Below are positions 1-53,827 of a DNA stretch of 64,000 bases, one piece after another (position 1 is the first letter of the stretch; the number at the start of each line of letters is the position of its first letter). A program made the position numbers and the translations under genes. Below the pieces are notes generated by a model, which was given only the letters and a program-made list of their open reading frames with translations, made no database searches and had not been told where the DNA came from. This DNA comes from Eledone cirrhosa (taxonomy: Eukaryota). Location: assembly GCA_964016885.1 (NCBI GenBank), contig OZ024741.1, positions 140,616,001 to 140,680,000 of the forward strand, read 5' to 3'.

Positions 1-71
1 CTTGACGACATAGTCGCATATATGTTATGGAATACTGTTAGCTTCTCGCTAAAACAATTTCTATACCTTTC

Positions 72-106
<35 letters not shown>

Positions 107-116
<10 letters not shown>

Positions 117-488
117 GAAAACGAAATTTCATTTCTCACTCTTAGTATGGCACTTACTTAAATGTAAGTATGCATGTATACGTACATACATATATGTATA
201 CAGACGTACAGTAGCATGCACATATATATATATATATACATATATACATACATATGCATACAGGTACACATACATATATGCACGTATCAGTTTAGCGGCG
301 CTTATTATAACGTCGCTTTGTTCGTTTGTAAACAAACTGAACAGCCTGAATTTATGCCATACGGTGTTAAGGCAACCACGTCACCTTTTTGTTCAACACT
401 GACACAGGAAGGATGTACTAGTTTCAAGCTTGTTAGCTAACATCAGCACCGTTTACCCATCTGCCAGATAGTTGAACGTTCGAAAGTA
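107..488 (-). repeat. Inverted partial copy (~380 bp) of the 472-bp monomer, forming a fold-back with the start of the array
   Basis: 107-419 is the near-exact reverse complement of 485-797 (313-bp arms, ~65-nt spacer). It is preceded by (TA)n at 75-106, and the junction carries an AGTA microhomology at 485-488. Confidence 0.95.
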
Positions 489-841
489 CATCGTTCCTGT
501 GTCAGTGTTGAACAAAAAGGTGACGTGGTTGCCTTAACACCGTATGGCATAAATTCAGGCTGTTCAGTTTGTTTACAAACGAACAAAGCGACGTTATAAT
601 AAGCGCCGCTAAACTGATACGTGCATATATGTATGTGTACCTGTATGCATATGTATGTATATATGTATATATATATATATATGTGCATGCTACTGTACGT
701 CTGTATACATATATGTATGTACGTATACATGCATACTTACATTTAAGTAAGTACCATACTAAGAGTGAGAAATGAAATTTCGTTTTCATTTTGTTTCAAT
801 TTATCGTTTTCGGTATGCCTGACCGATTTAACTCACTCAAT

Positions 842-849
842 ATGCAAAT
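842..849 (+). promoter_or_regulatory. Octamer motif ATGCAAAT, one per monomer, ~80 bp upstream of the hammerhead
   Basis: Exact octamer consensus, retained (as ATTTGCAT, 53171-53178) in the diverged relative. Function is inferred only. Confidence 0.4.
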
Positions 850-922
850 TAGGCTGCTCAGCCGTTAATTTTCATAAGGAAAGTATATACTTTCGAACGT
901 TCAACTATCTGGCAGATGGGTA

Positions 923-967
923 AACGGTGCTGATGATAGCTAACAAGCTTGAAACTAGTACATCGTT
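923..967 (+). ncRNA. Minimal type I hammerhead ribozyme (first of 40 copies, one per monomer); predicted cleavage after A960
   Basis: Stem I is aacggtg(923-929)/catcgtt(961-967). The core CTGATGA is at 930-936. Stem II is agct-aaca-agct closed by a U.U pair. GAAA is at 951-954, followed by a palindromic ACTAGT stem III and a GUA cleavage triplet. This layout matches the minimal hammerheads described for PLEs and metazoan retrozymes. Confidence 0.88.
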
Positions 968-3900
968 CCTGTGTCAGTGTGGAACAAAAAGGTGACGTGG
1001 TTGCCTTAACACCGTATGGCATAAATTCAGGCTGTTCAGTTTGTTTACAAACGAACAAAGCGACGTTATAATAAGCGCCGCTAAACTGATACGTGCATAT
1101 ATGTATGTGTACCTGTATGCATATGTATGTATATATGTATATATATATATATATGTGCATGCTACTGTACGTCTGTATACATATATGTATGTACGTATAC
1201 ATGCATACTTACATTTAAGTAAGTGCCATACTAAGAGTGAGAAATGAAATTTCGTTTTCATTTTGTTTCAATTTATCGTTTTCGGTATGCCTGACCGATT
1301 TAACTCACTCAATATGCAAATTAGGCTGCTCAGCCGTTAATTTTCATAAGGAAAGTATATACTTTCGAACGTTCAACTATCTGGCAGATGGGTAAACGGT
1401 GCTGATGATAGCTAACAAGCTTGAAACTAGTACATCGTTCCTGTGTCAGTGTTGAACAAAAAGGTGACGTGGTTGCCTTAACACCGTATGGCATAAATTC
1501 AGGCTGTTCAGTTTGTTTACAAACGAACAAAGCGACGTTATAATAAGCGCCGCTAAACTGATACGTGCATATATGTATGTGTACCTGTATGCATATGTAT
1601 GTATATATGTATATATATATATATGTGCATGCTACTGTACGTCTGTATACATATATGTATGTACGTATACATGCATACTTACATTTAAGTAAGTACCATA
1701 CTAAGAGTGAGAAATGAAATTTCGTTTTCATTTTGTTTCAATTTATCGTTTTCGGTATGCCTGACCGATTTAACTCACTCAATATGCAAATTAGGCTGCT
1801 CAGCCGTTAATTTTCATAAGGAAAGTATATACTTTTGAACGTTCAACTATCTGGCAGATGGGTAAACGGTGCTGATGATAGCTAACAAGCTTGAAACTAG
1901 TACATCGTTCCTGTGTCAGTGTTGAACAAAAAGGTGACGTGGTTGCCTTAACACCGTATGGCATAAATTCAGGCTGTTCAGTTTGTTTACAAACGAACAA
2001 AGCGACGTTATAATAAGCGCCGCTAAACTGATACGTGCATATATGTATGTGTACCTGTATGCATATGTATGTATATATGTATATATATATATATATGTGC
2101 ATGCTACTGTACGTCTGTATACATATATGTATGTACGTATACATGCATACTTACATTTAAGTAAGTGCCATACTAAGAGTGAGAAATGAAATTTCGTTTT
2201 CATTTTGTTTCAATTTATCGTTTTCGGTATGCCTGACCGATTTAACTCACTCAGTATGCAAATTAGGCTGCTCAGCCGTTAATTTTCATAAGGAAAGTAT
2301 ATACTTTCGAACGTTCAACTATCTGGCAGATGGGTAAACGGTGCTGATGATAGCTAACAAGCTTGAAACTAGTACATCGTTCCTGTGTCAGTGTTGAACA
2401 AAAAGGTGACGTGGTTGCCTTAACACCGTATGGCATAAATTCAGGCTGTTCAGTTTGTTTACAAACGAACAAAGCGACGTTATAATAAGCGCCGCTAAAC
2501 TGATACGTGCATATATGTATGTGTACCTGTATGCATATGTATGTATATATGTATATATATATATATATGTGCATGCTACTGTACGTCTGTATACATATAT
2601 GTATGTACGTATACATGCATACTTACATTTAAGTAAGTGCCATACTAAGAGTGAGAAATGAAATTTCGTTTTCATTTTGTTTCAATTTATCGTTTTCGGT
2701 ATGCCTGACCGATTTAACTCACTCAATATGCAAATTAGGCTGCTCAGCCGTTAATTTTCATAAGGAAAGTATATACTTTCGAACGTTCAACTATCTGGCA
2801 GATGCGTAAACGGTGCTGATGATAGCTAACAAGCTTGAAACTAGTACATCGTTCCTGTGTCAGTGTTGAACAAAAAGGTGACGTGGTTGCCTTAACACCG
2901 TATGGCATATATTCAGGCTGTTCAGTTTGTTTACAAACGAACAAAGCGACGTTATAATAAGCGCCGCTAAACTGATACGTGCATATATGTATGTGTACCT
3001 GTATGCATATGTATGTATATATGTATATATATATATATATGTGCATGCTACTGTACGTCTGTATACATATATGTATGTACGTATACATGCATACTTACAT
3101 TTAAGTAAGTGCCATACTAAGAGTGAGAAATGAAATTTCGTTTTCATTTTGTTTCAATTTATCGTTTTCGGTATGCCTGACCGATTTAACTCACTCAATA
3201 TGCAAATTAGGCTGCTCAGCCGTTAATTTTCATAAGGAAAGTATATACTTTCGAACGTTCAACTATCTGGCAGATGGGTAAACGGTGCTGATGATAGCTA
3301 ACAAGCTTGAAACTAGTACATCGTTCCTGTGTCAGTGTTGAACAAAAAGGTGACGTGGTTGCCTTAACACCGTATGGCATAAATTCAGGCTGTTCAGTTT
3401 GTTTACAAACGAACAAAGCGACGTTATAATAAGCGCCGCTAAACTGATACGTGCATATATGTATGTGTACCTGTATGCATATGTATGTATATATGTATAT
3501 ATATATATATGTGCATGCTACTGTACGTCTGTATACATATATGTATGTACGTATACATGCATACTTACATTTAAGTAAGTACCATACTAAGAGTGAGAAA
3601 TGAAATTTCGTTTTCATTTTGTTTCAATTTATCGTTTTCGGTATGCCTGACCGATTTAACTCACTCAATATGCAAATTAGGCTGCTCAGCCGTTAATTTT
3701 CATAAGGAAAGTATATACTTTCGAACGTTCAACTATCTGGCAGATGGGTAAACGGTGCTGATGATAGCTAACAAGCTTGAAACTAGTACATCGTTCCTGT
3801 GTCAGTGTTGAACAAAAAGGTGACGTGGTTGCCTTAACACCGTATGGCATAAATTCAGGCTGTTCAGTTTGTTTACAAACGAACAAAGCGACGTTATAAT

Positions 3901-6900
3901 AAGCGCCGCTAAACTGATACGTGCATATATGTATGTGTACCTGTATGCATATGTATGTATATATGTATATATATATATATATGTGCATGCTACTGTACGT
4001 ATGTATACATATATGTATGTACGTATACATGCATACTTACATTTAAGTAAGTGCCATACTAAGAGTGAGAAATGAAATTTCGTTTTCATTTTGTTTCAAT
4101 TTATCGTTTTCGGTATGCCTGACCGATTTAACTCACTCAATATGCAAATTAGGCTGCTCAGCCGTTAATTTTCATAAGGAAAGTATATACTTTCGAACGT
4201 TCAACTATCTGGCAGATGGGTAAACGGTGCTGATGATAGCTAACAAGCTTGAAACTAGTACATCGTTCCTGTGTCAGTGTTGAACAAAAAGGTGACGTGG
4301 TTGCCTTAACACCGTATGGCATAAATTCAGGCTGTTCAGTTTGTTTACAAACGAACAAAGCGACGTTATAATAAGCGCCGCTAAACTGATACGTGCATAT
4401 ATGTATGTGTACCTGTATGCATATGTATGTATATATGTATATATATATATATGTGCATGCTACTGTACGTCTGTATACATATATGTATGTACGTATACAT
4501 GCATACTTACATTTAAGTAAGTGCCATACTAAGAGTGAGAAATGAAATTTCGTTTTCATTTTGTTTCAATTTATCGTTTTCGGTATGCCTGACCGATTTA
4601 ACTCACTCAATATGCAAATTAGGCTGCTCAGCCGTTAATTTTCATAAGGAAAGTATATACTTTCGAACGTTCAACTATCTGGCAGATGGGTAAACGGTGC
4701 TGATGATAGCTAACAAGCTTGAAACTAGTACATCGTTCCTGTGTCAGTGTTGAACAAAAAGGTGACGTGGTTGCCTTAACACCGTATGGCATAAATTCAG
4801 GCTGTTCAGTTTGTTTACAAACGAACAAAGCGACGTTATAATAAGCGCCGCTAAACTGATACGTGCATATATGTATGTGTACCTGTATGCATATGTATGT
4901 ATATATGTATATATATATATATATGTGCATGCTACTGTACGTCTGTATACATATATGTATGTACGTATACATGCATACTTACATTTAAGTAAGTGCCATA
5001 CTAAGAGTGAGAAATGAAATTTCGTTTTCATTTTGTTTCAATTTATCGTTTTCGGTATGCCTGACCGATTTAACTCACTCAATATGCAAATTAGGCTGCT
5101 CAGCCGTTAATTTTCATAAGGAAATTATATACTTTCGAACGTTCAACTATCTGGCAGATGGGTAAACGGTGCTGATGATAGCTAACAAGCTTGAAACTAG
5201 TACATCGTTCCTGTGTCAGTGTTGAACAAAAAGGTGACGTGGTTGCCTTAACACCGTATGGCATAAATTCAGGCTGTTCAGTTTGTTTACAAACGAACAA
5301 AGCGACGTTATAATAAGCGCCGCTAAACTGATACGTGCATATATGTATGTGTACCTGTATGCATATGTATGTATATATGTATATATATATATATATGTGC
5401 ATGCTACTGTACGTCTGTATACATATATGTATGTACGTATACATGCATACTTACATTTAAGTAAGTGCCATACTAAGAGTGAGAAATGAAATTTCGTTTT
5501 CATTTTGTTTCAATTTATCGTTTTCGGTATGCCTGACCGATTTAACTCACTCAATATGCAAATTAGGCTGCTCAGCCGTTAATTTTCATAAGGAAAGTAT
5601 ATACTTTCGAACGTTCAACTATCTGGCAGATGGGTAAACGGTGCTGATGATAGCTAACAAGCTTGAAACTAGTACATCGTTCCTGTGTCAGTGTTGAACA
5701 AAAAGGTGACGTGGTTGCCTTAACACCGTATGGCATAAATTCAGGCTGTTCAGTTTGTTTACAAACGAACAAAGCGACGTTATAATAAGCGCCGCTAAAC
5801 TGATACGTGCATATATGTATGTGTACCTGTATGCATATGTATGTATATATGTATATATATATATATATGTGCATGCTACTGTACGTCTGTATACATATAT
5901 GTATGTACGTATACATGCATACTTACATTTAAGTAAGTGCCATACTAAGAGTGAGAAATGAAATTTCGTTTTCATTTTGTTTCAATTTATCGTTTTCGGT
6001 ATGCCTGACCGATTTAACTCACTCAATATGCAAATTAGGCTGCTCAGCCGTTAATTTTCATAAGGAAAGTATATACTTTCGAACGTTCAACTATCTGGCA
6101 GATGGGTAAACGGTGCTGATGATAGCTAACAAGCTTGAAACTAGTACATCGTTCCTGTGTCAGTGTTGAACAAAAAGGTGACGTGGTTGCCTTAACACCG
6201 TATGGCATAAATTCAGGCTGTTCAGTTTGTTTACAAACGAACAAAGCGACGTTATAATAAGCGCCGCTAAACTGATACGTGCATATATGTATGTGTACCT
6301 GTATGCATATGTATGTATATATGTATATATATATATATATGTGCATGCTACTGTACGTCTGTATACATATATGTATGTACGTATACATGCATACTTACAT
6401 TTAAGTAAGTGCCATACTAAGAGTGAGAAATGAAATTTCGTTTTCATTTTGTTTCAATTTATCGTTTTCGGTATGCCTGACCGATTTAACTCACTCAATA
6501 TGCAAATTAGGCTGCTCAGCCGTTAATTTTCATAAGGAAAGTATATACTTTCGAACGTTCAACTATCTGGCAGATGGGTAAACGGTGCTGATGATAGCTA
6601 ACAAGCTTGAAACTAGTACATCGTTCCTGTGTCAGTGTTGAACAAAAAGGTGACGTGGTTGCCTTAACACCGTATGGCATAAATTCAGGCTGTTCAGTTT
6701 GTTTACAAACGAACAAAGCGACGTTATAATAAGCGCCGCTAAACTGATACGTGCATATATGTATGTGTACCTGTATGCATATGTATGTATATATGTATAT
6801 ATATATATATGTGCATGCTACTGTACGTCTGTATACATATATGTATGTACGTATACATGCATACTTACATTTAAGTAAGTACCATACTAAGAGTGAGAAA

Positions 6901-9900
6901 TGAAATTTCGTTTTCATTTTGTTTCAATTTATCGTTTTCGGTATGCCTGACCGATGTAACTCACTCAATATGCAAATTAGGCTGCTCAGCCGTTAATTTT
7001 CATAAGGAAAGTATATACTTTCGAACGTTCAACTATCTGGCAGATGGGTAAACGGTGCTGATGATAGCTAACAAGCTTGAAACTAGTACATCGTTCCTGT
7101 GTCAGTGTTGAACAAAAAGGTGACGTGGTTGCCTTAACACCGTATGGCATAAATTCAGGCTGTTCAGTTTGTTTACAAACGAACAAAGCGACGTTATAAT
7201 AAGCGCCGCTAAACTGATACGTGCATATATGTATGTGTACCTGTATGCATATGTATGTATATATGTATATATATATATATATATATGTGCATGCTACTGT
7301 ACGTCTGTATACATATATGTATGTACGTATACATGCATACTTACATTTAAGTAAGTGCCATACTAAGAGTGAGAAATGAAATTTCGTTTTCATTTTGTTT
7401 CAATTTATCGTTTTCGGTATGCCTGACCGATTTAACTCACTCAATATGCAAATTAGGCTGCTCAGCCGTTAATTTTCATAAGGAAAGTATATACTTTCGA
7501 ACGTTCAACTATCTGGCAGATGGGTAAACGGTGCTGATGATAGCTAACAAGCTTGAAACTAGTACATCTTTCCTGTGTCAGTGTTGAACAAAAAGGTGAC
7601 GTGGTTGCCTTAACACCGTATGGCATAAATTCAGGCTGTTCAGTTTGTTTACAAACGAACAAAGCGACGTTATAATAAGCGCCGCTAAACTGATACGTGC
7701 ATATATGTATGTGTACCTGTATGCATATGTATGTATATATGTATATATATATATATATGTGCATGCTACTGTACGTCTGTATACATATATGTATGTACGT
7801 ATACATGCATACTTACATTTAAGTAAGTGCCATACTAAGAGTGAGAAATGAAATTTCGTTTTCGTTTTGTTTCAATTTATCGTTTTCGGTATGCCTGACC
7901 GATTTAACTCACTCAATATGCAAATTAGGCTGCTCAGCCGTTAATTTTCATAAGGAAAGTATATACTTTCGAACGTTCAACTATCTGGCAGATGGGTAAA
8001 CGGTGCTGATGATAGCTAACAAGCTTGAAACTAGTACATCGTTCCTGTGTCAGTGTTGAACAAAAAGGTGACGTGGTTGCCTTAACACCGTATGGCATAA
8101 ATTCAGGCTGTTCAGTTTGTTTACAAACGAACAAAGCGACGTTATAATAAGCGCCGCTAAACTGATACGTGCATATATGTATGTGTACCTGTATGCATAT
8201 GTATGTATATATGTATATATATATATATGTGCATGCTACTGTACGTCTGTATACATATATGTATGTACGTATACATGCATACTTACATTTAAGTAAGTAC
8301 CATACTAAGAGTGAGAAATGAAATTTCGTTTTCATTTTGTTTCAATTTATCGTTTTCGGTATGCCTGACCGATTTAACTCACTCAATATGCAAATTAGGC
8401 TGCTCAGCCGTTAATTTTCATAAGGAAAGTATATACTTTCGAACGTTCAACTATCTGGCAGATGGGTAAACGGTGCTGATGATAGCTAACAAGCTTGAAA
8501 CTAGTACATCGTTCCTGTGTCAGTGTTGAACAAAAAGGTGACGTGGTTGCCTTAACACCGTATGGCATAAATTCAGGCTGTTCAGTTTGTTTACAAACGA
8601 ACAAAGCGACGTTATAATAAGCGCCGCTAAACTGATACGTGCATATATGTATGTGTACCTGTATGCATATGTATGTATATATGTATATATATATATATAT
8701 GTGCATGCTACTGTACGTCTGTATACATATATGTATGTACGTATACATGCATACTTACATTTAAGTAAGTGCCATACTAAGAGTGAGAAATGAAATTTCG
8801 TTTTCATTTTGTTTCAATTTATCGTTTTCGGTATGCCTGACCGATTTAACTCACTCAATATGCAAATTAGGCTGCTCAGCCGTTAATTTTCATAAGGAAA
8901 GTATATACTTTCGAACGTTCAACTATCTGGCAGATGGGTAAACGGTGCTGATGATAGCTAACAAGCTTGAAACTAGTACATCGTTCCTGTGTCAGTGTTG
9001 AACAAAAAGGTGACGTGGTTGCCTTAACACCGTATGGCATAAATTCAGGCTGTTCAGTTTGTTTACAAACGAACAAAGCGACGTTATAATAAGCGCCGCT
9101 AAACTGATACGTGCATATATGTATGTGTACCTGTATGCATATGTATGTATATATGTATATATATATATATATGTGCATGCTACTGTACGTCTGTATACAT
9201 ATATGTATGTACGTATACATGCATACTTACATTTAAGTAAGTGCCATACTAAGAGTGAGAAATGAAATTTCGTTTTCATTTTGTTTCAATTTATCGTTTT
9301 CGGTATGCCTGACCGATTTAACTCACTCAATATGCAAATTAGGCTGCTCAGCCGTTAATTTTCATAAGGAAAGTATATACTTTCGAACGTTCAACTATCT
9401 GGCAGATGGGTAAACGGTGCTGATGATAGCTAACAAGCTTGAAACTAGTACATCGTTCCTGTGTCAGTGTTGAACAAAAAGGTGACGTGGTTGCCTTAAC
9501 ACCGTATGGCATAAATTCAGGCTGTTCAGTTTGTTTACAAACGAACAAAGCGACGTTATAATAAGCGCCGCTAAACTGATACGTGCATATATGTATGTGT
9601 ACCTGTATGCATATGTATGTATATATGTATATATATATATATATGTGCATGCTACTGTACGTCTGTATACATATATGTATGTACGTATACATGCATACTT
9701 ACATTTAAGTAAGTGCCATACTAAGAGTGAGAAATGAAATTTCGTTTTCATTTTGTTTCAATTTATCGTTTTCGGTATGCCTGACCGATTTAACTCACTC
9801 AATATGCAAATTAGGCTGCTCAGCCGTTAATTTTCATAAGGAAAGTATATACTTTCGAACGTTCAACTATCTGGCAGATGGGTAAACGGTGCTGATGATA

Positions 9901-12900
9901 GCTAACAAGCTTGAAACTAGTACATCGTTCCTGTGTCAGTGTTGAACAAAAAGGTGACGTGGTTGCCTTAACACCGTATGGCATAAATTCAGGCTGTTCA
10001 GTTTGTTTACAAACGAACAAAGCGACGTTATAATAAGCGCCGCTAAACTGATACGTGCATATATGTATGTGTACCTGTATGCATATGTATGTATATATGT
10101 ATATATATATATATATATGTGCATGCTACTGTACGTCTGTATACATATATGTATGTACGTATACATGCATACTTACATTTAAGTAAGTGCCATACTAAGA
10201 GTGAGAAATGAAATTTCGTTTTCATTTTGTTTCAATTTATCGTTTTCGGTATGCCTGACCGATTTAACTCACTCAATATGCAAATTAGGCTGCTCAACCG
10301 TTAATTTTCATAAGGAAAGTATATACTTTCGAACGTTCAACTATCTGGCAGATGGGTAAACGGTGCTGATGATAGCTAACAAGCTTGAAACTAGTACATC
10401 GTTCCTGTGTCAGTGTTGAACAAAAAGGTGACGTGGTTGCCTTAACACCGTATGGCATAAATTCAGGCTGTTCAGTTTGTTTACAAACGAACAAAGCGAC
10501 GTTATAATAAGCGCCGCTAAACTGATACGTGCATATATGTATGTGTACCTGTATGCATATGTATGTATATATGTATATATATATATATATGTGCATGCTA
10601 CTGTACGTCTGTATACATATATGTATGTACGTATACATGCATACTTACATTTAAGTAAGTGCCATACTAAGAGTGAGAAATGAAATTTCGTTTTCATTTT
10701 GTTTCAATTTATCGTTTTCGGTATGCCTGACCGATTTAACTCACTCAATATGCAAATTAGGCTGCTCAGCCGTTAATTTTCATAAGGAAAGTATATACTT
10801 TCGAACGTTCAAATATCTGGCAGATGGGTAAACGGTGCTGATGATAGCTAACAAGCTTGAAACTAGTACATCGTTCCTGTGTCAGTGTTGAACAAAAAGG
10901 TGACGTGGTTGCCTTAACACCGTATGGCATAAATTCAGGCTGTTCAGTTTGTTTACAAACGAACAAAGCGACGTTATAATAAGCGCCGCTAAACTGATAC
11001 GTGCATATATGTATGTGTACCTGTATGCATATGTATGTATATATGTATATATATATATATATATGTGCATGCTACTGTACGTCTGTATACATATATGTAT
11101 GTACGTATACATGCATACTTACATTTAAGTAAGTGCCATACTAAGAGTGAGAAATGAAATTTCGTTTTCATTTTGTTTCAATTTATCGTTTTCGGTATGC
11201 CTGACCGATTTAACTCACTCAATATGCAAATTAGGCTGCTCAGCCGTTAATTTTCATAAGGAAAGTATATACTTTCGAACGTTCAACTATCTGGCAGATG
11301 GGTAAACGGTGCTGATGATAGCTAACAAGCTTGAAACTAGTACATCGTTCCTGTGTCAGTGTTGAACAAAAAGGTGACGTGGTTGCCTTAACACCGTATG
11401 GCATAAATTCAGGCTGTTCAGTTTGTTTACAAACGAACAAAGCGACGTTATAATAAGCGCCGCTAAACTGATACGTGCATATATGTATGTGTACCTGTAT
11501 GCATATGTATGTATATATATATATATATGTGCATGCTACTGTACGTCTGTATACATATATGTATGTACGTATACATGCATACTTACATTTAAGTAAGTGC
11601 CATACTAAGAGTGAGAAATGAAATTTCGTTTTCATTTTGTTTCAATTTATCGTTTTCGGTATGCCTGACCGATTTAACTCACTCAATATGCAAATTAGGC
11701 TGCTCAGCCGTTAATTTTCATAAGGAAAGTATATACTTTCGAACGTTCAACTATCTGGCAGATGGGTAAACGGTGCTGATGATAGCTAACAAGCTTGAAA
11801 CTAGTACATCGTTCCTGTGTCAGTGTTGAACAAAAAGGTGACGTGGTTGCCTTAACACCGTATGGCATAAATTCAGGCTGTTCAGTTTGTTTACAAACGA
11901 ACAAAGCGACGTTATAATAAGCGCCGCTAAACTGATACGTGCATATATGTATGTGTACCTGTATGCATATGTATGTATATATGTATATATATATATATAT
12001 GTGCATGCTACTGTACGTCTGTATACATATATGTATGTACGTATACATGCATACTTACATTTAAGTAAGTGACATACTAAGAGTGAGAAATGAAATTTCG
12101 TTTTCATTTTGTTTCAATTTATCGTTTTCGGTATGCCTGACCGATTTAACTCACTCAATATGCAAATTAGGCTGCTCAGCCGTTAATTTTCATAAGGAAA
12201 GTATATACTTTCGAACGTTCAACTATCTGGCAGATGGGTAAACGGTGCTGATGATAGCTAACAAGCTTGAAACTAGTACATCGTTCCTGTGTCAGTGTTG
12301 AACAAAAAGGTGACGTGGTTGCCTTAACACCGTATGGCATAAATTCAGGCTGTTCAGTTTGTTTACAAACGAACAAAGCGACGTTATAATAAGCGCCGCT
12401 AAACTGATACGTGCATATATGTATGTGTACCTGTATGCATATGTATGTATATATGTATATATATATATATATATGTGCATGCTACTGTACGTCTGTATAC
12501 ATATATGTATGTACGTATACATGCATACTTACATTTAAGTAAGTGCCATACTAAGAGTGAGAAATGAAATTTCGTTTTCATTTTGTTTCAATTTATCGTT
12601 TTCGGTATGCCTGACCGATTTAACTCACTCAATATGCAAATTAGGCTGCTCAGCCGTTAATTTTCATAAGGAAAGTATATACTTTCGAACGTTCAACTAT
12701 CTGGCAGATGGGTAAACGGTGCTGATGATAGCTAACAAGCTTGAAACTAGTACATCGTTCCTGTGTCAGTGTTGAACAAAAAGGTGACGTGGTTGCCTTA
12801 ACACCGTATGGCATAAATTCAGGCTGTTCAGTTTGTTTACAAACGAACAAAGCGACGTTATAATAAGCGCCGCTAAACTGATACGTGCATATATGTATGT

Positions 12901-15900
12901 GTACCTGTATGCATATGTATGTATATATGTATATATATATATATATGTGCATGCTACTGTACGTCTGTATACATATATGTATGTACGTATACATGCATAC
13001 TTACATTTAAGTAAGTGCCATACTAAGAGTGAGAAATGAAATTTCGTTTTCATTTTGTTTCAATTTATCGTTTTCGGTATGCCTGACCGATTTAACTCAC
13101 TCAATATGCAAATTAGGCTGCTCAGCCGTTAATTTTCATAAGGAAAGTATATACTTTCGAACGTTCAACTATCTGGCAGATGGGTAAACGGTGCTGATGA
13201 TAGCTAACAAGCTTGAAACTAGTACATCGTTCCTGTGTCAGTGTTGAACAAAAAGGTGACGTGGTTGCCTTAACACCGTATGGCATAAATTCAGGCTGTT
13301 CAGTTTGTTTACAAACGAACAAAGCGACGTTATAATAAGCGCCGCTAAACTGATACGTGCATATATGTATGTGTACCTGTATGCATATGTATGTATATAT
13401 GTATATATATATATATATGTGCATGCTACTGTACGTCTGTATACATATATGTATGTACGTATACATGCATACTTACATTTAAGTAAGTGCCATACTAAGA
13501 GTGAGAAATGAAATTTCGTTTTCATTTTGTTTCAATTTATCGTTTTCGGTATGCCTGACCGATTTAACTCACTCAATATGCAAATTAGGCTGCTCAGCCG
13601 TTAATTTTCATAAGGAAAGTATATACTTTCGAACGTTCAACTATCTGGCAGATGGGTAAACGGTGCTGATGATAGCTAACAAGCTTGAAACTAGTACATC
13701 GTTCCTGTGTCAGTGTTGAACAAAAAGGTGACGTGGTTGCCTTAACACCGTATGGCATAAATTCAGGCTGTTCAGTTTGTTTACAAACGAACAAAGCGAC
13801 GTTATAATAAGCGCCGCTAAACTGATACGTGCATATATGTATGTGTACCTGTATGCATATGTATGTATATATGTATATATATATATATATGTGCATGCTA
13901 CTGTACGTCTGTATACATATATGTATGTACGTATACATGCATACTTACATTTAAGTAAGTGCCATACTAAGAGTGAGAAATGAAATTTCGTTTTCATTTT
14001 GTTTCAATTTATCGTTTTCGGTATGCCTGACCGATTTAACTCACTCAATATGCAAATTAGGCTGCTCAGCCGTTAATTTTCATAAGGAAAGTATATACTT
14101 TCGAACGTTCAACTATCTGGCAGATGGGTAAACGGTGCTGATGATAGCTAACAAGCTTGAAACTAGTACATCGTTCCTGTGTCAGTGTTGAACAAAAAGG
14201 TGACGTGGTTGCCTTAACATCGTATGGCATAAATTCAGGCTGTTCAGTTTGTTTACAAACGAACAAAGCGACGTTATAATAAGCGCCGCTAAACTGATAC
14301 GTGCATATATGTATGTGTACCTGTATGCATATGTATGTATATATGTATATATATATATATATGTGCATGCTACTGTACGTCTGTATACATATATGTATGT
14401 ACGTATACATGCATACTTACATTTAAGTAAGTGCCATACTAAGAGTGAGAAATGAAATTTCGTTTTCATTTTGTTTCAATTTATCGTTTTCGGTATGCCT
14501 GACCGATTTAACTCACTCAATATGCAAATTAGGCTGCTCAGCCGTTAATTTTCATAAGGAAAGTATATACTTTCGAACGTTCAACTATCTGGCAGATGGG
14601 TAAACGGTGCTGATGATAGCTAACAAGCTTGAAACTAGTACATCGTTCCTGTGTCAGTGTTGAACAAAAAGGTGACGTGGTTGCCTTAACACCGTATGGC
14701 ATAAATTCAGGCTGTTCAGTTTGTTTACAAACGAACAAAGCGACGTTATAATAAGCGCCGCTAAACTGATACGTGCATATATGTATGTGTACCTGTATGC
14801 ATATGTATGTATATATGTATATATATATATATATGTGCATGCTACTGTACGTCTGTATACATATATGTATGTACGTATACATGCATACTTACATTTAAGT
14901 AAGTGCCATACTAAGAGTGAGAAATGAAATTTCGTTTTCATTTTGTTTCAATTTATCGTTTTCGGTATGCCTGACCGATTTAACTCACTCAATATGCAAA
15001 TTAGGCTGCTCAGCCGTTAATTTTCATAAGGAAAGTATATACTTTCGAACGTTCAACTATCTGGCAGATGGGTAAACGGTGCTGATGATAGCTAACAAGC
15101 TTGAAACTAGTACATCGTTCCTGTGTCAGTGTTGAACAAAAAGGTGACGTGGTTGCCTTAACACCGTATGGCATAAATTCAGGCTGTTCAGTTTGTTTAC
15201 AAACGAACAAAGCGACGTTATAATAAGCGCCGCTAAACTGATACGTGCATATATGTATGTGTACCTGTATGCATATGTATGTATATATGTATATATATAT
15301 ATATATGTGCATGCTACTGTACGTCTGTATACATATATGTATGTACGTATACATGCATACTTACATTTAAGTAAGTGCCATACTAAGAGTGAGAAATGAA
15401 ATTTCGTTTTCATTTTGTTTCAATTTATCGTTTTCGGTATGCCTGACCGATTTAACTCACTCAATATGCAAATTAAGCTGCTCAGCCGTTAATTTTCATA
15501 AGGAAAGTATATACTTTCGAACGTTCAACTATCTGGCAGATGGGTAAACGGTGCTGATGATAGCTAACAAGCTTGAAACTAGTACATCGTTCCTGTGTCA
15601 GTGTTGAACAAAAAGGTGACGTGGTTTCCTTAACACCGTATGGCATAAATTCAGGCTGTTCAGTTTGTTTACAAACGAACAAAGCGACGTTATAATAAGC
15701 GCCGCTAAACTGATACGTGCATATATGTATGTGTACCTGTATGCATATGTATGTATATATGTATATATATATATATATGTGCATGCTACTGTACGTCTGT
15801 ATACATATATGTATGTACGTATACATGCATACTTACATTTAAGTAAGTGCCATACTAAGAGTGAGAAATGAAATTTCGTTTTCATTTTGTTTCAATTTAT

Positions 15901-18900
15901 CGTTTTCGGTATGCCTGACCGATTTAACTCACTCAATATGCAAATTAGGCTGCTCAGCCGTTAATTTTCATAAGGAAAGTATATACTTTCGAACGTTCAA
16001 CTATCTGGCAGATGGGTAAACGGTGCTGATGATAGCTAACAAGCTTGAAACTAGTACATCGTTCCTGTGTCAGTGTTGAACAAAAAGGTGACGTGGTTGC
16101 CTTAACACCGTATGGCATAAATTCAGGCTGTTCAGTTTGTTTACAAACGAACAAAGCGACGTTATAATAAGCGCCGCTAAACTGATACGTGCATATATGT
16201 ATGTGTACCTGTATGCATATGTATGTATATATGTATATATATATATATATGTGCATGCTACTGTACGTCTGTATACATATATGTATGTACGTATACATGC
16301 ATACTTACATTTAAGTAAGTGCCATACTAAGAGTGAGAAATGAAATTTGGTTTTCATTTTGTTTCAATTTATCGTTTTCGGTATGCCTGACCGATTTAAC
16401 TCACTCAATATGCAAATTAGGCTGCTCAGCCGTTAATTTTCATAAGGAAAGTATATACTTTCGAACGTTCAACTATCTGGCAGATGGGTAAACGGTGCTG
16501 ATGATAGCTAACAAGCTTGAAACTAGTACATCGTTCCTGTGTCAGTGTTGAACAAAAAGGTGACGTGGTTGCCTTAACACCGTATGGCATAAATTCAGGC
16601 TGTTCAGTTTGTTTACAAACGAACAAAGCGACGTTATAATAAGCGCCGCTAAACTGATACGTGCATATATGTATGTGTACCTGTATGCATATGTATGTAT
16701 ATATGTATATATATATATATATGTGCATGCTACTGTACGTCTGTATACATATATGTATGTACGTATACATGCATACTTACATTTAAGTAAGTGCCATACT
16801 AAGAGTGAGAAATGAAATTTCGTTTTCATTTTGTTTCAATTTATCGTTTTCGGTATGCCTGACCGATTTAACTCACTCAATATGCAAATTAGGCTGCTCA
16901 GCCGTTAATTTTCATAAGGAAAGTATATACTTTCGAACGTTCAACTATCTGGCAGATGGGTAAACGGTGCTGATGATAGCTAACAAGCTTGAAACTAGTA
17001 CATCGTTCCTGTGTCAGTGTTGAACAAAAAGGTGACGTGGTTTCCTTAACACCGTATGGCATAAATTCAGGCTGTTCAGTTTGTTTACAAACGAACAAAG
17101 CGACGTTATAATAAGCGCCGCTAAACTGATACGTGCATATATGTATGTGTACCTGTATGCATATGTATGTATATATGTATATATATATATATATGTGCAT
17201 GCTACTGTACGTCTGTATACATATATGTATGTACGTATACATGCATACTTACATTTAAGTAAGTGCCATACTAAGAGTGAGAAATGAAATTTCGTTTTCA
17301 TTTTGTTTCAATTTATCGTTTTCGGTATGCCTGACCGATTTAACTCACTCAATATGCAAATTAGGCTGCTCAGCCGTTAATTTTCATAAGGAAAGTATAT
17401 ACTTTCGAACGTTCAACTATCTGGCAGATGGGTAAACGGTGCTGATGATAGCTAACAAGCTTGAAACTAGTACATCGTTCCTGTGTCAGTGTTGAACAAA
17501 AAGGTGACGTGGTTGCCTTAACACCGTATGGCATAAATTCAGGCTGTTCAGTTTGTTTACAAACGAACAAAGCGACGTTATAATAAGCGCCGCTAAACTG
17601 ATACGTGCATATATGTATGTGTACCTGTATGCATATGTATGTATATATGTATATATATATATATATGTGCATGCTACTGTACGTCTGTATACATATATGT
17701 ATGTACGTATACATGCATACTTACATTTAAGTAAGTGCCATACTAAGAGTGAGAAATGAAATTTCGTTTTCATTTTGTTTCAATTTATCGTTTTCGGTAT
17801 GCCTGACCGATTTAACTCACTCAATATGCAAATTAGGCTGCTCAGCCGTTAATTTTCATAAGGAAAGTATATACTTTCGAACGTTCAACTATCTGGCAGA
17901 TGGGTAAACGGTGCTGATGATAGCTAACAAGCTTGAAACTAGTACATCGTTCCTGTGTCAGTGTTGAACAAAAAGGTGACGTGGTTGCCTTAACACCGTA
18001 TGGCATAAATTCAGGCTGTTCAGTTTGTTTACAAACGAACAAAGCGACGTTATAATAAGCGCCGCTAAACTGATACGTGCATATATGTATGTGTACCTGT
18101 ATGCATATGTATGTATATATGTATATATATATATATATGTGCATGCTACTGTACGTCTGTATACATATATGTATGTACGTATACATGCATACTTACATTT
18201 AAGTAAGTGCCATACTAAGAGTGAGAAATGAAATTTCGTTTTCATTTTGTTTCAATTTATCGTTTTCGGTATGCCTGACCGATTTAACTCACTCAATATG
18301 CAAATTAGGCTGCTCAGCCGTTAATTTTCATAAGGAAAGTATATACTTTCGAACGTTCAACTATCTGGCAGATGGGTAAACGGTGCTGATGATAGCTAAC
18401 AAGCTTGAAACTAGTACATCGTTCCTGTGTCAGTGTTGAACAAAAAGGTGACGTGGTTTCCTTAACACCGTATGGCATAAATTCAGGCTGTTCAGTTTGT
18501 TTACAAACGAACAAAGCGACGTTATAATAAGCGCCGCTAAACTGATACGTGCATATATGTATGTGTACCTGTATGCATATGTATGTATATATGTATATAT
18601 ATATATATATGTGCATGCTACTGTACGTCTGTATACATATATGTATGTACGTATACATGCATACTTACATTTAAGTAAGTGCCATACTAAGAGTGAGAAA
18701 TGAAATTTCGTTTTCATTTTGTTTCAATTTATCGTTTTCGGTATGCCTGACCGATTTAACTCACTCAATATGCAAATTAGGCTGCTCAGCCGTTAATTTT
18801 CATAAGGAAAGTATATACTTTCGAACGTTCAACTATCTGGCAGATGGGTAAACGGTGCTGATGATAGCTAACAAGCTTGAAACTAGTACATCGTTCCTGT

Positions 18901-19322
18901 GTCAGTGTTGAACAAAAAGGTGACGTGGTTGCCTTAACACCGTATGGCATAAATTCAGGCTGTTCAGTTTGTTTACAAACGAACAAAGCGACGTTATAAT
19001 AAGCGCCGCTAAACTGATACGTGCATATATGTATGTGTACCTGTATGCATATGTATGTATATATGTATATATATATATATATGTGCATGCTACTGTACGT
19101 CTGTATACATATATGTATGTACGTATACATGCATACTTACATTTAAGTAAGTGCCATACTAAGAGTGAGAAATGAAATTTCGTTTTCATTTTGTTTCAAT
19201 TTATCGTTTTCGGTATGCCTGACCGATTTAACTCACTCAATATGCAAATTAGGCTGCTCAGCCGTTAATTTTCATAAGGAAAGTATATACTTTCGAACGT
19301 TCAACTATCTGGCAGATGGGTA

Positions 19323-19367
19323 AACGGTGCTGATGATAGCTAACAAGCTTGAAACTAGTACATCGTT
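19323..19367 (+). ncRNA. Minimal type I hammerhead ribozyme, last (40th) copy; predicted cleavage after A19360
   Basis: Identical to 923-967. Confidence 0.88.
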
Positions 19368-19612
19368 CCTGTGTCAGTGTTGAACAAAAAGGTGACGTGG
19401 TTGCCTTAACACCGTATGGCATAAATTCAGGCTGTTCAGTTTGTTTACAAACGAACAAAGCGACGTTATAATAAGCGCCGCTAAACTGATACGTGCATAT
19501 ATGTATGTGTACCTGTATGCATATGTATGTATATATGTATATATATATATATATGTGCATGCTACTGTACGTCTGTATACATATATGTATGTACGTATAC
19601 ATGCATACTTAC

Positions 19613-19643
<31 letters not shown>

Positions 19644-19717
19644 CGTGTGTGTCTGTGTCTATGTGTGTATGTGTGTGTGTGTAACTAATGGACAAACAGA
19701 ATTCATTAAATTTTGGA

Positions 19718-19748
<31 letters not shown>

Positions 19749-20248
19749 TCTGTCTATCTATGAACGAAGACTATAAAACAGGAACTACTTAGAATAATGT
19801 CATTCTTCACAAATATGAAATATAATATATTTTCTCTCGTTTTCTCTAATGCCGAGACTGTCGTTTGACATGTTTGAAAATATATTTGTCAGTGATGTAT
19901 ATTTGATACACTGGTCGTAAACTATGTTACTAATGAGTCATATAGGTATATTATAAATATAGCTGCAGTGTAGAAAGCACTATATTATTACTGACGCTGT
20001 AAATTAATCTCAAGACATTAAAGAATACGTTAACTAATGGATAAACAGAATTCATTAAATTTTGGAATGCTGACATATTTATGGGCGTAGGCGTAGATAT
20101 GCTCTGAAAATAGTTCTGTTTGCATATGCATTATTACAGATGGAGCAGCATTAGGTGGCAGCTTAAGCAAGATACTTCTGTGATATATTTGCATGGAAGA
20201 GTAGATATTATAGTACTCGATCGGGCAAATAATTTGATCAAATAATCG

Positions 20249-20281
<33 letters not shown>

Positions 20282-20357
20282 CGAAGGAATTGTGGTAAGG
20301 AACCCGATGGACCATAACGCACCAAAGTACTCAATACTTAGGGTAGTAGAGTGGGTA

Positions 20358-20474
20358 ATAGGAAAAAGTATGACCTCCGGCGGCAGAGCTCAAGCCGTTT
20401 CGACGGCTATTTCTGGACTAAAATAGCCGTTGAAACGGCTTGAGCTCTGCCGTCGTGGTCATACCTCTTCCTAT
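20358..20474. repeat. GC-rich ~55-bp-arm inverted repeat (fold-back) at the end of a short (TA)n-flanked insertion (20281-20471)
   Basis: ggaaaaagtatgacc...cggctattt, an 8-nt loop ctggacta, then aaatagccg...ggtcatacctcttcc, with few mismatches. Confidence 0.85.
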
Positions 20475-52827: not shown

Positions 52828-52846
52828 TATATATATATATATATAT

Positions 52847-53692
52847 AAATATAAGTATATATACGTACATACATATATGTGTACAGACGCACAGTAGCAT
52901 GTATATATATACATACAGGCACACATATATATATATATATATATACGTATGGGTTTACCGAACATTTATTATAATATTCGGTTTGTTTGTAAACAAACAG
53001 CCCGAATTGCGCCGTACAGTGCTCGGCACCATCGTCGCCCTTTTGTTCAACACTGACACAGGAACGATGTACTAGTTTCAAGCTACTCAGTATCGTATAC
53101 CTATATGTCAGATGATTGAACGTTTGAAAGTATATACTTTCTTTATGCATATTAACGGATGAGCAGCCTAATTTGCATATCGAGTGAGTTAGTCGGCCGG
53201 GCGCACCGAAAACGATAAATGGAAAAGAATGAAACGAAATTTCATTTCTCACTCTTAGTACGGCTGATACCTAAATATAAGTATGTATACGTACATACAT
53301 ATATGTGTACAGACGCACAGAAGTATGTATATATATATATACATACATGCACACATATAGATATGTACGTATGGGTTTACCGAATATTTATTATAATGTT
53401 CTGTTTATAAGCTTGAAACTAGTACATAGTTCCTGTGTCAGTGTTGAACAAAAGGGCAACGATGGTTGCCGAGCACTGTACGGCGTATTTCGGGTTGTTT
53501 GTTTACAAACAAACCGAACATTATAATAAATGTTCGGTAAACCGATACGTACATATATATATATATATATATGCATGTATACATACTACTGTGCGTCTGT
53601 ACACATATATGTATGTACGTATACATACTTATATTTAGGTATCAGCCGTACTAAGAGTGGGAAATGAAATTCCGTTTCATTCTTTTCCATTT
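52847..53692. repeat. Diverged relative of the 472-bp monomer (period ~426 bp): ~1.3 units on minus, then ~0.65 unit on plus; (TA)n-flanked
   Basis: Shared blocks include gcttgaaactagtacat, cctgtgtcagtgttgaacaaaa, gtttgtttacaaac, gaaatttcatttctcactcttagta, gagcagcctaatttgcatat and aaagtatatacttt. The orientation switches at ~53407. Confidence 0.92.
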
Positions 53693-53827
53693 ATATATAT
53701 ATATATATAAAGGATAACAAAATATTGCTATAGGTAATCCAATTAGAGGTTGTGAATACAATTCTTAGACTGCAAATAAATCCCATTTTTTGTACTGTTG
53801 ACCATGTTATTCTCCACTTTTCAATTA

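Follow-up and report, generated by a model that had tools for sequence, protein, structure and literature searches.

A two-armed hammerhead-repeat insertion in Eledone cirrhosa, the family to which it belongs and a junction at a predicted ribozyme cleavage site

The stretch of the Eledone cirrhosa assembly analysed here, hereafter the window, comprises 64,000 nucleotides of contig OZ024741.1 (GCA_964016885.1, positions 140,616,001 to 140,680,000). It carries a tandem array (485-19614; period 472, 40.5 copies, 99% matches by TRF) with a GC content of 35-36%, which runs forward from a short inverted piece of the same repeat, so that two arms of unequal length stand head to head with (TA)n adjoining the outer ends of both (Table 1). 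No ORF of at least 200 aa was found in window positions 1-20,000, and the array carries no reverse transcriptase (RT) plus GIY-YIG ORF. The two substitutions of the inverted arm are private to it, occurring in none of the 41 forward units. We number the unit from the C that follows the predicted GUA cleavage triplet (+1), so that -1 is unit 472. A first-pass annotation had reported that the forward array starts precisely at a predicted ribozyme cleavage site, and this is borne out: window 485-488 reads AGTA, the sequence from 489 on is CATCGTTCC, and C489 lies one 472-nt period before C961, the base after GTA 958-960. AGTA is compatible with either arm, which leaves the breakpoint ambiguous over 5 positions, and on the side of the inverted arm it lies within the unit's 16-bp palindrome. 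The outer (3') end of the inverted arm lies 7 nt before the family's usual tail end at unit 316, and the forward arm ends at unit 254, close to the family's usual short end at about 257.

Table 1. Coordinates of the features described, in window positions
Feature	Position	Strand	Basis
(TA)16, left half of the microsatellite target	75..106	.	TRF + unit alignment
Inverted arm, 382 nt; reverse complement of unit 400-472 then 1-309, two substitutions	107..488	-	unit alignment
Hammerhead copy within the inverted arm, predicted site 416/415	409..453	-	inspection + unit alignment
AGTA overlap, head-to-head joint of the arms	485..488	.	inspection + unit alignment
Forward arm, 40.5 copies of the 472-nt unit	489..19614	+	TRF + unit alignment
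"Tail", unit 258-316, between the family's two outer ends; copy in the first unit	746..804	+	
16-bp perfect palindrome, unit 391-406; copy in the first unit	879..894	.	unit alignment
First complete predicted type I hammerhead, predicted cleavage 960/961	923..967	+	inspection
(TA)n, right half of the target	19615..19632	.	
Second, diverged (73-77%) two-armed family insertion; outer ends unit 257 and 316, inner ends near 161 and 457	52846..53694	.	

The second family insertion is older, and its inner junction is more complex than that of the main one. Elsewhere in the window, RVT_1 or Exo_endo_phos domains occur in five of the eight ORFs scanned, of nine listed, and a cluster of retroelement ORFs on the minus strand (22730-44214) includes a 976-aa RVT_1 frame and Exo_endo_phos frames. 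At 20280-20470, and again at another locus (L035), a short element that contains an inverted repeat lies in (TA)n, at L035 within the TA tract of the unit itself; it is probably another microsatellite-targeting element.

By inspection, each unit contains what reads as a type I hammerhead, with the CUGANGA, GAAA and GUH core elements, three stems and an open stem I. In its first complete copy, stem I is formed by 923-929 and 961-967, the core CTGATGA occupies 930-936, stem II 937-950 and GAAAC-TA-GTA 951-960; stem I has 7 bp, stem II 4 bp and stem III just 2 bp, around the palindromic ACTAGT. The predicted cleavage-site motif recurs in every unit of the 40.5 x 472 nt array, the hammerhead core is unchanged across variants, and in a diverged variant (seven loci) one stem I pair is altered on both sides, from G-T to T-G. 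An Rfam search returned no matches at gathering thresholds, and the local minimum free energy fold of the hammerhead, in which stems I and II do form, is no better than those of shuffled sequences (z 0.15); the fold of the whole unit has a z of -7.7, largely from its TA-rich palindromes. Self-cleavage of the unit RNA at 960/961 is predicted from these motifs. We note that both substitutions of the inverted arm fall in its 45-nt hammerhead, at window 440 (core A9) and 411 (a stem I pair), a clustering that may be chance.

Genome-wide searches of the 3.0-Gb assembly show the insertion to be one of many. The tail followed by TA, in a pattern covering the wider family, has 4,870 forward-strand matches, which on doubling gives a family of roughly ten thousand insertions; the exact tail of the window's variant followed by TA occurs in 845 copies and that of a sister variant in 277. 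Of the 120 loci that we mapped, 90 belong to the window's variant, taken from the first 100 of its 845 copies as listed, every one on contig C1, and 30 are the first of the sister variant's 277; all were chosen by tail and TA, so that the choice itself sets their tail end. At least 83 of the 120 have two head-to-head arms in (TA)n, a partner arm being accepted when it measured at least 45 nt and, in addition, had its 3' end at 240-265, ran beyond the retrieved stretch or exceeded 250 nt. Among the 72 partner-arm 3' ends that are visible, 62 lie at unit 253-261. The outer ends of the family thus fall at unit ~257 and ~316, about 59 nt apart, and these two ends recur in the window's second copy and in the 30 loci that a plain DNA search gave. 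Inner ends, by contrast with these fixed outer ends, are scattered over the whole unit, and at the junctions the arms overlap by at least 1 nt in 66 of 84 cases and by 1-9 nt in 59 (BLAST estimates). Arms in the sample reach 17 units, with a median of 432 nt and a maximum of 8,123 nt, which makes the window's 19-kb forward arm an outlier. Several of its units have variants in common (265G>A in units 1, 3, 7, 14 and 17; 43G>T in 33, 36 and 39), a pattern that suggests later DNA-level duplication or a mixed template, and such later duplication probably contributed part of the 19-kb length.

Two further observations concern copies of other form. Fold-back at the hammerhead's own palindromes, with near-perfect inverted junctions, is seen at L116/L117, L110 and L185 and in rows of two of the genome-wide bins described below (-15..-20 and +7..+2). 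A long and more diverged array (L003-L018 and L023, at 6.08-6.11 Mb of G000:C11) has a higher-order period of ~4.5 kb and is a satellite-like expansion of the 472-nt unit.

From the position of the junction, the first-pass annotation had concluded that reverse transcription reached the 5' end of an RNA that had cut itself and then switched template, leaving a genomic fossil of in vivo cleavage. A peak of 5' ends at the cleavage site, which would support such a reading, appears in none of three counts along the unit. The first is the 120-locus set, in which three tail arms are censored, leaving 200 mapped 5' ends; these positions are taken from BLAST alignments, with a possible error of a few bases, and the 52 of them that fall in TA-rich unit 129-258, where calls are unreliable, were excluded from the mean rate. 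None of the 200 lies at -4..+1, where 2.1 were expected, and the arms cross the cleavage site 327 times without one stop, so that the upper 95% bound on stopping per crossing is 0.9%. The second count used a pattern enriched for truncations around the site, with an anchor at unit 31-50 required and the reference base forbidden at four upstream positions. It returned 411 truncations between -28 and +31 (60 nt), the first 100 of which gave 97 distinct rows and, after removal of 11 small indels, 86 real ends; three of the 86 lie at -4..+1, against 7.2 under uniformity. The third is a series of genome-wide bins of six positions each, all with one anchor, for which we give raw counts and, in brackets, counts made by eye with small-indel rows removed: 36 (about 31) at +21..+16, 89 (86) at +15..+10, 52 (42) at +7..+2, 40 (33, with seven small indels out and the window's junction included) at the cleavage site itself, +1..-5, 49 (44) at -15..-20, and 25 raw at -35..-40, where ends are not visible and the count is an upper bound. 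The pattern for -15..-20 truly excluded three positions, not four, with a similar pass rate for real junctions. The site bin is thus ordinary, no higher than its neighbours, and 5' junctions are not concentrated at the cleavage site in the manner of R2 elements.

A departure from uniformity lies just downstream. In the 120-locus set, 27 ends fall at +2..+33 where 13.8 were expected (ratio 2.2, look-elsewhere p 0.006), mostly in the 257-arms (17 vs 6.8), and the excess persists in arms longer than one unit (12 vs 6.8, p 0.04). A minority of cDNAs may run off the cleaved end and then be trimmed. Genome-wide, +15..+10 alone stands out, at twice the neighbouring bins; TGTGT lies within it, and TA-type sequence is the partner in many of its rows. 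Since repeats of the TA type can pair with TGTGT, the simpler cause of this genome-wide excess would be local microhomology. A model of run-off at +1 plus trimming, expressed as a ramp and step, was weakened by the +21..+16 bin, which is no higher than the site bin. The +7..+2 bin also holds rows with a single base gained (three rows) or lost (two rows) between +2 and +1; these may be ligation-site scars or may be ordinary indels.

How, then, is the window's own junction to be read? A run-off of the reverse transcriptase at a self-cleaved RNA's 5' end, with joining of the cDNA at that point, would fit the exactness of the position, the 33 real junctions in the site bin genome-wide and the +2..+33 excess with its greatest strength in 257-arms, and R2 elements offer a precedent for ribozyme-defined 5' junctions (PMC3774820). 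We nevertheless consider it improbable, given that the site bin is not raised when its 33 are set against about 31, 86, 42, 44 and at most 25, that counts at +21..+16 are no higher than at the site, leaving no broad shoulder genome-wide, that 327 crossings produced no stop, and that in the window itself the forward arm passes 40 intact sites and the partner arm one more. As a rule for the family, run-off is already contradicted. Nor does the apparent precision of the junction weigh as much as had been claimed: the five-position ambiguity stands, but the corresponding chance of 5/472 (1%) is valid for one pre-chosen end only. The figure is post hoc, because the window alone has four arm starts, which makes it 4%, and the genome holds thousands of insertions, among which one hit at the cleavage site is expected anyway. 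The claim of in vivo cleavage recorded in the genome is accordingly left unsupported, with no peak and with arms that cross the sites, and the inverted arm, having its own family-typical outer end, is better seen as a separately primed cDNA than as the product of a template switch. These results speak against hammerhead cleavage as what determines where insertions end. RNA-mediated insertion as such, which had also been proposed, does gain support, through other features: the fixed outer ends, the (TA)n targets and the Penelope-like anatomy.

An origin wholly at the level of DNA would have the array arise first and the inverted arm be added by replication template switching or by break repair at the palindrome. 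The inverted arm does begin inside the 16-bp palindrome, the palindrome recurs as partner in 3 of the 52 rows of the +7..+2 bin, and the variants common to several units record some DNA-level turnover. Such an origin leaves unexplained, however, why the ends next to (TA)n fall at ~257 for partner arms (62/72) and at ~316 for tail arms, and why an autonomous Penelope-like element (PLE) described below has the same shape, and the inner ends are spread over the entire unit; we hold it to be highly improbable. Palindromic junctions are prone to assembly and fold-back errors, and the short contig pieces from 4 of 24 sequencing runs include none listed across position 488. An artefact from assembly or from a chimeric, folded-back read is nonetheless barely credible here, since neither of the inverted arm's two substitutions recurs in any forward unit, since this arm ends at the family tail in (TA)n and is no mirror of neighbouring sequence, and since dozens of independent loci have the identical anatomy.

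The arms themselves are informative about the template. In 36 of the 37 insertions in which each arm covers unit 31-132, both arms are of the same variant, the two variants being about equally common, and the mean variant distance is 0.54 within insertions and 3.41 between them, a difference matched in 0 of 10,000 permutations. This concordance would fit one RNA behind both arms, or variants active at different times. The arms also run through ribozyme sites, and it follows that a circle, an uncut multimer or template jumps are needed to account for them.

Penelope-like elements with the appropriate enzymes are present in this genome. A search with PF01541 (GIY-YIG) gave 150 scored matches above the cut-off from 10,598 candidates, and at five of the six scored loci that we examined an ORF combines a YxDD with a GIY-type motif; Pfam recognises an RT in four of these five ORFs and GIY-YIG in three. 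One of the loci (L322:1460-4725, in G000:C1:97885800-97891900) is a 3,266-bp head-to-head palindrome, 99.7% perfect, in (TA)n, whose arms differ by one extra tail of about 45 nt. Judged by its sequence, it is an autonomous-type PLE with the same anatomy as the retrozyme insertions, but coding. The PLE sequences of the six loci from the 150 scored matches have no similarity to the retrozyme unit, including the pLTR. We also observed a hammerhead-like core in the 3' part of L322, and likewise in L321 and L326; at L321 a retrozyme copy lies beside a PLE. A Penelope-like enzyme is the likely, and at present candidate, mobiliser of the family.

Taken by its parts (tandem hammerhead units, non-coding and low in GC, in dispersed copies, with RT plus GIY-YIG ORFs co-occurring in the genome), the element is a newly found member of the non-LTR retrozymes with PLE-like anatomy, an inverted 5'-truncated partner, a tail at one end and a microsatellite target. 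In L1 twin priming, too, both target strands prime cDNA, and inverted and forward pieces are joined by microhomology, the second priming site being opportunistic; in contrast, the family described here has both outer ends fixed, and either of its arms can exceed one unit. Published metazoan non-LTR retrozymes resemble it in their tandem units, which are non-coding, low in GC, a few hundred bp long and each equipped with a type I hammerhead (PMC7229834; 10.64898/2026.07.22.740005). Head-to-head arms in pairs, with two fixed outer ends, and maps of 5' breakpoints do not appear in the parts of those accounts drawn on here. Expression, cleavage and pLTR homology are reported there for some published families; for ours, cleavage is predicted from sequence. 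Among the titles and abstract openings found, a coverage that leaves out subscription journals, none describes two-armed retrozyme insertions. Retrozymes have been regarded as PLE derivatives on the grounds of co-occurrence and pLTR phylogeny (10.64898/2026.07.22.740005), and circular RNAs have been proposed as templates for tandem cDNA, with PLEs as candidate mobilisers (PMC7229834). PLE insertions feature inverted copies, tails of 30-40 bp and a (TA)n bias (PMC8557442), and those of EN+ PLEs share with the present family the inverted 5'-truncated copy, the tail and the (TA)n or AT-rich target (PMC8557442; PMC11167929); they differ in that our family has no ORF, a tail of ~59 nt rather than 30-40, and arms of up to 17 units (40 in the window). 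In R2 retrotransposons the cut of an HDV-like ribozyme defines the 5' end of the RNA and hence the genomic 5' junction, with chance microhomology (PMC3774820), a mechanism of the kind envisaged in the first-pass annotation; here there is no concentration at the cut site, the ribozyme is of another class and the target is not site-specific.

We suggest, as the best account of these results, that the window holds a two-armed insertion of a non-coding hammerhead repeat, likely made by the enzyme of a PLE, and that the junction at the predicted site is likely chance; we think this reading highly probable. The steps by which it would have been made can be proposed with less assurance. A GIY-YIG endonuclease would nick the (TA)n duplex on both strands, and from each nick reverse transcription of the same RNA would be primed at one internal site, unit ~257 or ~316. 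These would be RT start sites by analogy with a PLE protein that in vitro cuts and extends both strands, is predicted to be a dimer, starts at two internal RNA sites which define the tail and works without hammerhead cleavage (PMC11167929). The template would be continuous across the ribozyme site, as a ligated circle or an uncut multimer. In its 2-bp stem III the unit's hammerhead is similar to dimer-type motifs, for which efficient cleavage is reported in the dimer only (PMC7229834), and monomer circles of the unit might on this ground be spared cleavage. Both cDNAs would then end, by stopping or by trimming, at mostly arbitrary positions and would pair through microhomology, in this case AGTA with the unit's palindrome. 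In its complete form, that a dimeric Penelope-type RT copied one circular retrozyme RNA from both nicked strands, starting at fixed sites 59 nt apart and rolling through the ligated site, and that the cDNAs were joined head-to-head, in thousands of insertions, the proposal is tentative, and we would put it a little short of an even chance. Against a PLE-type process as the best explanation we have counted the 59-nt tail, the dissimilarity between the unit and the PLE sequences at six loci, and the +2..+33 excess.

The coincidence that drew attention to this junction is by itself unimportant, and the value of the locus lies in the family-wide anatomy to which it leads. This anatomy points to PLE-type insertion, primed on both strands, from an RNA that runs uninterrupted through the ribozyme site. 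In the passages of PMC8557442, PMC7229834, PMC11167929 and 10.64898/2026.07.22.740005 on which we draw, the formation of PLE inverted repeats and tails, and the use of PLE enzymes and circles by retrozymes, are treated as open. Should the full proposal be true, the family would show directly, from genomic sequence, that PLE machinery acting on circles moves animal retrozymes, and the inverted repeats and the tails of PLEs would be explained by one mechanism. A young, non-coding family of about ten thousand insertions, with fixed ends and matching arms, makes these questions about PLEs and retrozymes testable in one genome.
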